Positions 33,991-36,003 of a DNA stretch of 64,000 nucleotides are shown here, piece by piece (within the stretch, counting starts at the first letter, position 1; each line of letters opens with the position of its first letter). Position numbers and translations under genes: made by a program. Source of the DNA: an uncultured Poribacteria bacterium. Lineage in GTDB: Bacteria; Poribacteria; WGA-4E; WGA-3G. The notes beneath the pieces were generated by a model that searched no databases, had not been told where the DNA came from, and saw nothing but the letters and a program-made list of their open reading frames with translations. The DNA lies in the NCBI GenBank assembly GCA_951813565.1, contig OX638351.1, forward strand, positions 2,528,001-2,592,000, written 5' to 3'.

Positions 33991-36003
33991 TTACGCATCC
34001 ACATCTACACGTATAGACAACTCTTCTAATTGTGCCTCTGTCACAGTAGATGGGGCATGGGTAAGTGGGCAAAGCCCTTGTTGCGATTTTGGGAATGCAA
34101 TCACCTCGCGAATGTTCTCCTCGTTTCGCATTAACATCACAATACGGTCAAGCCCTGGTGCAATCCCCGCATGTGGTGGCGTGCCATATTCCAAAGCGTC
34201 AATGAAATAGCCGAACCGATTTTTAACGTCTTCGGGTGTAATCTTCAGAATATCAAAAATCTTCTGTTGGATATCCCATTGATGTATTCTAACACTCCCA
34301 CTACAGATTTCTGAGCCATTGCAAACCAAATCGTAGTGTTGACTCTGAACCTTGCCGGGATCTGTATCTAACAGATGTAAGGTATCCTCTGTTGCACCCG
34401 TGAACAGATGATGGAACGGTTCAAATCGATTCTCCTCTTCATTCCATTCGAACAGCGGATAATCCACAATCCACAAGAAGTTATAACGGTCTTCATCAAT
34501 CAGGTTTAGTTTGCGACCGAGATGTAGGCGAAGATTGCCGAGTGCATCTGCAACAACTTTTGATCGGTCAGCAACAAAAAACATTATGTCTCCGGGTTTT
34601 GCTCCCGTTCTCTCTTGTGCTGTTTCGAGCTGCTCAGTTTTGAAAAACTTAACAATACCTGATGAGAATTCATCTGATGTGACCTTAACCCATGCCAATC
34701 CCTTTGCGCGGTAGGTCGCAACGAACTCCGTCAAATCGTCAATATCTTTTCTTGAAAAATCTGCCCCTCCAGGGACAGCGATGCCTTTTACTTGTCCACC
34801 GGAAGACAGAGCACGGGTGAATACCTGAAAATCACAGTCTGCCATTACATCGGAGAGGTCTGTAAGTTCCATACCAAATCGCGTATCTGGTTTATCATTG
34901 CCGAACCGTGCCATCGATTCATGGTAGGGCAACCTTAAGAAAGGCGTTTCAACAGAAATGTTCCCAGCTTCCTCAAATATCCGTTTCATCAGACCTTCGG
35001 TTACCTCAAGCACATCGTCAACACCTGCGAAGGACATCTCAATATCAAGTTGTGTGAACTCAAGTTGTCTATCAGCGCGAGTATCCTCATCGCGGAAACA
35101 GCGTGCAATTTGAAAATAACGGTCTACTCCGCTCATCATCAGAATCTGTTTGAACTGTTGCGGCGATTGCGGAAGCGCATAGAATTTACCGGGATAATAA
35201 CGACTCGGCACGAGAACATCGCGTGCGCCTTCTGGTGTGCTATTCATCAAGATAGGTGTCTCAATTTCAAGGAATCCCTCTTCATTCATATAGTTACGGG
35301 CTGCAAGGGCGGCTTTATGCCGCATTTCAAGCGTTTTTTGCATCTCCGGTCGCCGCAAATCGATAAACCGATAACGCATCCGTATATCTTCTGCTACCTC
35401 GATCTCGTCTTCTACTGGGAACGGTGGTGTTTTGGCAGTATTAAGTATGTTCAACGAATCTACCGCTATTTCAATCTCACCTGTGGCAAGCTCTGGATTC
35501 ACGGTGCCTTGATAAATATTTAGACTGTCTGCTTCACGTTCTATGTCGTAAGTTCTATTATTTTCCACATCAGTGAGAAGCCATCGTTTGTCATTCTCGC
35601 GAACATCAACTTTTATGTTGTCTGACAGTGTGTATTTTGTATCTAAATCCGAAAAAAGTGATCGCAATTCGGTTGACAAAGATGTTCCATTGGAGAGTTC
35701 CGCTTGGAATGCTGCATCTGCTTTGAAGAGCAGTTCGCCCGGGGCACGTTCACGGACTGTTCCGCTGACATTTAGGACAAACTCACTTCTGACAGCATCT
35801 GCAAGCGCGTGTGCTTTTTCGTCAATCTGTGGGTCGAAGACTACCTGTGTAATTCCAGTTCTATCGCGTAAATCCACGAAAATCACACCGCCGTGGTCGC
35901 GGCGACGTCTCACCCAGCCATTCAGTTGGGCAGTGGTACCAGCATCACTCAAACGCAGATCACCACAATAGTGGGTCCGTTTTAAAGAAGGTTCTTGGGA
36001 CAT
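33991..36003 (-). CDS. aspS: aspartate--tRNA ligase (probably non-discriminating Asp/Asn) with 77-aa insertion
   Basis: RTHYCG, RRDHGGVIFVDLRD, FYALPQSPQ, CFRDED, EFTQLDIEMSF, PPHAGIAPGLDR. Confidence 0.97.
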   Translation of the reverse strand: MSQEPSLKRTHYCGDLRLSDAGTTAQLNGWVRRRRDHGGVIFVDLRDRTGITQVVFDPQIDEKAHALADAVRSEFVLNVSGTVRERAPGELLFKADAAFQAELSNGTSLSTELRSLFSDLDTKYTLSDNIKVDVRENDKRWLLTDVENNRTYDIEREADSLNIYQGTVNPELATGEIEIAVDSLNILNTAKTPPFPVEDEIEVAEDIRMRYRFIDLRRPEMQKTLEMRHKAALAARNYMNEEGFLEIETPILMNSTPEGARDVLVPSRYYPGKFYALPQSPQQFKQILMMSGVDRYFQIARCFRDEDTRADRQLEFTQLDIEMSFAGVDDVLEVTEGLMKRIFEEAGNISVETPFLRLPYHESMARFGNDKPDTRFGMELTDLSDVMADCDFQVFTRALSSGGQVKGIAVPGGADFSRKDIDDLTEFVATYRAKGLAWVKVTSDEFSSGIVKFFKTEQLETAQERTGAKPGDIMFFVADRSKVVADALGNLRLHLGRKLNLIDEDRYNFLWIVDYPLFEWNEEENRFEPFHHLFTGATEDTLHLLDTDPGKVQSQHYDLVCNGSEICSGSVRIHQWDIQQKIFDILKITPEDVKNRFGYFIDALEYGTPPHAGIAPGLDRIVMLMRNEENIREVIAFPKSQQGLCPLTHAPSTVTEAQLEELSIRVDVDA

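Follow-up and report, generated by a model that had tools for sequence, protein, structure and literature searches.

The window, the whole stretch of 64,000 nucleotides that was analysed, carries on its minus strand the gene for a bacterial-type aspartyl-tRNA synthetase (AspRS), in which Pfam and NCBIfam recognise the OB, catalytic, and GAD domains. An additional domain lies in the anticodon-side loop of this enzyme. The features of the locus are the following:

33991..36003, minus strand: aspS, bacterial-type AspRS of 670 aa (TIGR00459, 743 bits), the sole AspRS of the genome
35737..35934, minus strand: residues 24-89, an OB-fold anticodon-binding domain that precedes the insert and has the loop Gly89 as its last residue
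35893..35895, minus strand: His37, equivalent of Pseudomonas aeruginosa His31 by alignment with 4WJ3_M
35506..35736, minus strand: inserted domain, AspRS residues 90-166 (77 codons), delimited by alignment and predicted structure
35446..35505, minus strand: residues 167-186, comprising the remainder of the loop (TVNP) and the final OB strand
34540..34821, minus strand: GAD domain, residues 395-488 (Pfam), an ordinary insertion of bacterial AspRS

Directly upstream of aspS, an MFS/spermidine synthase/TPR fusion is encoded at 36024-39320 (minus strand); towards the end of this protein, a short peptide is repeated in tandem. The gene at 32072-33652 (minus strand) encodes, as judged by eye, a dicarboxylate/amino-acid symporter with an extra strand-rich segment (about 100 aa) that follows its third helix, and that at 29215-31620 (minus strand) an AI-2E family transporter of 801 aa, the soluble insertion of which (about 450 aa) gave only weak propeller-like matches.

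The 77 residues of the insert are stop-free and in the frame of AspRS. In an alignment with 14 uninserted Poribacteria AspRS, they split RERAP cleanly from TVNP, and with eight other inserted AspRS of the phylum included, the extra residues, 74-77 in number, formed a clean block at the loop Gly. Because Gly stands on both sides, with GGC as both codons, the boundary slides by one codon and 35509-35739 is an equally good placement. The insert was spanned by one contig in each of four runs from two studies, one of these runs being possibly the source of this DNA, and within it no letter was changed, missing, or added. A region search found it in 116 other AspRS clusters, among which the named homologues are Candidatus Poribacteria. 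On these two grounds an assembly artefact was rejected, and the in-frame insertion that an earlier note had read from the letters alone is real, its support extending to the contigs built from the runs. A single joint seen in the run contigs, with a side of 27 letters, low depth, and 461 other letters between, was taken to be the aspS of another organism.

When modelled alone, the insert was predicted to form a strand, two helices, and four strands with a pLDDT of about 89. The same elements appeared in the model of the full AspRS, the rest of which matches solved AspRS structures, so the small alpha/beta domain that had been proposed for this loop agrees with the prediction. It represents one copy of a domain of about 74 aa that has no name and is confidently predicted to fold, and in which Trp and Asp are invariant and Tyr near-invariant across 46 copies. 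No family match was found in Pfam, NCBIfam, or PDB sequences, and no PHROGs family fits (one row at an E-value of 0.008 among the 46). Foldseek gave no fold match at E ≤ 0.001; the best match by VIA had a Z of 4.3 and an rmsd of 3.2 over 59 aligned residues, and Atlas scores were under 0.9. This lack of a clear match does not make the fold new. No description of the domain was found in the openly accessible main texts searched, nor in the available parts of PMC4206432, PMC9976931, PMC10969869, PMC13114784, and PMC9012536. Poribacteria combined with aspartyl-tRNA synthetase gave no literature match.

The insert is confined to one clade inside the phylum and is thus not a widespread feature of AspRS. 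An AspRS match was obtained in 150 of 151 phylum genomes. Of the 98 matched relatives of family f1, 97 have a match that continues through the insert (the remaining one begins past the insert at a contig end), as do 10/10 genomes of family f2 (one partial) and 4/4 of genus g7 of family f3; in the other 37 genomes the match begins after the insert. In a quick tree of 14 rows built after stripping the insert, the six inserted AspRS formed one clade against eight uninserted ones (SH-aLRT 96), while a quick tree of 23 AspRS rows left the inserted clade unresolved; the AspRS of genome G135, with a stop codon in the locus, was omitted from the trees. One site and one clade therefore indicate one insertion event, and we conclude that the AspRS insert was gained once and then inherited by one Poribacteria clade. 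The AspRS of genus g7 (L056, L057) clusters with family f2 instead of joining the other f3 enzymes, which reflects either transfer of aspS or a taxonomy mismatch.

The AspRS insert is under moderate purifying selection. In 30 close genes its dN/dS was 0.15 compared with 0.025-0.043 in the host AspRS, at a dS near saturation (1.3-1.6), and it changes 4 to 6 times faster than the host. Some AspRS inserts (P0109-P0118) have acquired extra in-frame stretches and reach about 104-137 aa.

The earlier note had further suggested that the insert might alter the choice between tRNA-Asp and tRNA-Asn; this was not borne out. We take His31 and the loop Gly of P. aeruginosa AspRS to be the marks of a non-discriminating enzyme, and the insert sits in the very loop whose Gly aligns with that Gly. 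Both equivalents cited in the note are present; its numbering fits for His31, but counting in 4WJ3_M with His as 31 makes the loop Gly 82, not 83. Among 117 inserted AspRS, 116 retain the His and 113 retain the Gly on either side of the insert. The check for asnS and gatCAB proposed in the note gave no sign of a selectivity change. No asnS was detected in 42 genomes, inserted and uninserted alike (the control was detected in 11/14), and neither asnS nor a second AspRS was found in this genome (95% complete, one contig), in which gatA, gatB, and gatC were all found. Its tRNA-Asn has U1-A72, given as an amidation determinant of tRNA-Asn in the part of PMC9976931 that was available. The AspRS must therefore still charge tRNA-Asp as well as tRNA-Asn, and as far as the gene content tells, it would be a non-discriminating enzyme that serves both tRNAs. 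It resembles the non-discriminating AspRS of P. aeruginosa (4WJ3/4WJ4) in its OB, catalytic, and GAD domains, in the His and loop Gly, and in the GatCAB route, but unlike all three solved AspRS structures aligned, it has the insert.

The net charge of the AspRS insert ranges from -13 to -2, with the host at about -5 per 100 residues, and compared with the domain family (mean -2.3, n = 273) the copies in AspRS have a more acidic mean of -8.6 (n = 115), which may be an adaptation. Because it is acidic, the insert is unlikely to bind tRNA. A switch of Asp/Asn selectivity through the insert is unlikely and was rejected on genome content, since asnS is missing with or without the insert and GatCAB is present; a quantitative influence on the Asp:Asn ratio may exist.

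The expectation of the note that the domain would recur in other proteins of the lineage was confirmed. The domain sits in many unrelated proteins, and it was detected in 22 of 27 phylum genomes with 1-24 matches each. This genome has 14 matches in about 11 genes, with hosts that include BamA, O-antigen ligase, YibE/F, histidine kinase, vWA, and DUF4861 proteins; the copies in the CCA-adding enzyme and sigma-54 are weak, partial matches. Across the genus, 10-15 matches were found in 15/15 genomes, and these genomes retain a common set of about ten hosts. Further hosts are SecD, signal peptidase I, CtpA, heme A synthase, UPF0182, and AI-2E proteins, and a tally by hand gave more than 40 Pfam host families. 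At 50% identity the profile matched 2361 clusters at E ≤ 0.001 and 694 at 1e-10; the 2361 are an upper bound, since a false-positive sequence (P0120, 36 stretches) was recognised, and this one was dropped before the count. One of 20 profile clusters looked up has an organism name, Poribacteria, and in the 125 of the best 150 clusters that were scanned the host domains were highly varied.

The domain was also found in 4/5 archaeal genomes (titled Methanomicrobia, Methanosarcinales, Methanophagales) with 1-7 matches, the hosts including AglB and, in one case, RNA polymerase A', where it lies inside the N-terminal region of the subunit (L128:1-2088, minus strand, genome G152). An Acidobacteria record has tandem copies, and tandem arrays occur in some proteins. 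Insertion proper was verified for AspRS, SecD, and EMC6-arch, and elsewhere the evidence is co-occurrence in one protein. The SecD copy is present in one of six family-f3 genomes (G061) and absent from five relatives, and relatives 86% alike lack it; the EMC6-arch copy is present in L116 and absent from five relatives among those listed. A single, weak query for a stand-alone domain gene of 40-130 aa gave no candidate, and short representatives such as P0197 and P0247 originate from short contigs. L098 was rejected as a chance DNA match. Baseplate, tail, or TssG-like proteins are found among the hosts (P0141, P0156, P0157, P0161, P0176, P0179, P0202, P0218, P0250), and the domain may have come from such proteins or been carried by them.

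Several observations suggest that the domain was copied as a unit. A whole copy interrupts another one, at three to four different outer loops, in 10 of 149 top representatives, a proportion in which nesting is over-represented because the representatives were ranked by summed score. Nested copies also occur in this genome and in one archaeon; a protein with no Pfam match (L001, C1:4544242-4545387, minus strand) has three copies, of which one lies within another. Nesting could also be imitated if the two halves were duplicated separately, but this would need two steps each time. At pairs with the same amino acid in 28 unrelated hosts, codon sharing was 0.429 compared with 0.360 ± 0.005 after permutation, and at the third position alone 0.477 compared with 0.421, neighbour-base effects lying outside these controls. 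Codon sharing above both controls therefore suggests that the copies descend from common DNA that is not yet randomised. The closest copies in unrelated hosts are only 68% alike, and this maximum, together with the stable host set of the genus, indicates that the copying bursts are old.

The copies were also searched for traces of a DNA element. Only 2 of 35 copies had a palindrome z below -2 (mean z -0.05), and the consensus had a z of +1.0 with a longest inverted repeat of 7 bp; in old copies a palindrome may have decayed. No non-coding copy was found, all 13 DNA-profile matches at E < 0.001 in this genome being in-frame copies, and the best 150 of 303 phylum matches all lie in stop-free open frames of 189 aa or more. 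The five other frames of the domain consensus hold 4-9 stops. As for target duplication, GGC stands on both sides in aspS and none was evident at SecD or, by eye, in 53 flanks, the insertions being old. No terminal repeat was found at the copies, and none of the 125 hosts scanned had a domain of a transposase, reverse transcriptase, or recombinase. It is thus pattern alone that suggests mobility of the domain.

Taken together, we consider the AspRS insert to be probably a tolerated, independently folding module without a role specific to AspRS. A DNA unit of about 220 bp encoding the domain would have been copied whole into many genes in past bursts, and those that arrived in frame in a surface loop would have persisted, because the two ends of the domain are presumably brought together by its first and last strands and the host fold can close around it. 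In the ancestor of one Poribacteria clade, a single event of this kind would have placed the domain at the tip of the anticodon loop of AspRS. There it would project from the OB fold, with a presumed geometry relative to the tRNA, and be kept folded by moderate purifying selection while the AspRS stays non-discriminating. Against this stand the absence of any loss of the insert within the clade and a dN/dS far below 1, which are as compatible with a function as with the need to stay folded. The greater acidity of the AspRS copies and the lack of a mobilising enzyme among the hosts scanned also count against it.

A function shared by all copies is the rival that fares best, though we find it rather improbable. 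The domain would then be a selected general-purpose tag that binds a common partner or surface (membrane, chaperone, or itself) or stabilises the host, and that was recruited repeatedly, as PDZ and PH domains were. The invariant residues, the purifying selection, the tandem arrays, and the ten or so hosts kept across the genus would all suit a tag. However, the hosts are both cytoplasmic (AspRS, CCA enzyme, sigma-54, RNA polymerase A') and exported (SecD, signal peptidase, BamA, AglB), and therefore no single partner is within reach; the SecD copy is missing from close relatives, and nesting brings no obvious gain. Co-option in AspRS, by which the insert tunes anticodon reading, tRNA release, or transamidosome assembly with the specificity not switched, appears distinctly less likely. 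It could draw on the position at the Gly of the anticodon-side loop, fixation in the clade, the consistent acidity, and the copy in a second tRNA enzyme, the CCA-adding enzyme, but the same acidity speaks against tRNA binding, uninserted relatives lack asnS equally, and the insert drifts faster than its host and has in some cases been lengthened by further insertions, to as much as about 137 aa. A self-splicing element, either an intein or an intron excised from RNA, would fit an in-frame position inside essential conserved genes but is very improbable, as 0/46 copies end in His-Asn/Gln, only 3/46 have any Cys, no Hint match was obtained, the length is about 74 aa, and no RNA structure beyond coding was seen in the 35 copies.

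Domain insertion into core enzymes is usually regarded as old and one-off. Here, one unnamed domain has been inserted repeatedly, with presence and absence in close relatives, nesting, and a codon trace, which makes the process directly studiable. Where its copies sit marks loops that naturally tolerate insertion, in AspRS, RNA polymerase A', SecD, signal peptidase, BamA, and AglB, and a portable scaffold for insertions is a possible use of the domain. In AspRS, the anticodon-side loop accommodates a whole domain while the enzyme, judged by genome content, must still serve two tRNAs. What makes the insert interesting is thus the spread of the domain, rather than any change in which tRNA is chosen.

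Generalist inserted domains such as PDZ, PH, C2, PX, and RING are likewise compact domains inserted as A1-B-A2 in many host superfamilies; in the available part of that study, 2.4% of 581 insert families have 11 or more host groups (PMC13114784). These are known interaction modules, mainly of signalling and regulation, whereas the domain described here has no family or fold match, core enzymes as hosts, self-nesting, and shared synonymous codons. The Rickettsia palindromic elements (RPEs) are described, in the part of PMC10969869 that was available, as palindromic MITE-like repeats of about 150 bp, nearly half of which lie in ORFs. Both are repeated units fused in frame into unrelated housekeeping genes, with a conserved peptide apparently compatible with host folding. 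In contrast to RPEs as described there, the unit here is about 220 bp, uses one frame, had no palindrome or non-coding copy that was found, encodes its own folded domain, and occurs in bacteria and archaea. It thus fails the defining DNA features of RPEs. Tentatively, and with less than even confidence, it could represent a class of mobile element with a folded domain as its unit, with no enzyme, palindrome, or splicing, which is copied in trans, persists only in frame within proteins, even essential ones, and has passed between Poribacteria and methane-cycling archaea.
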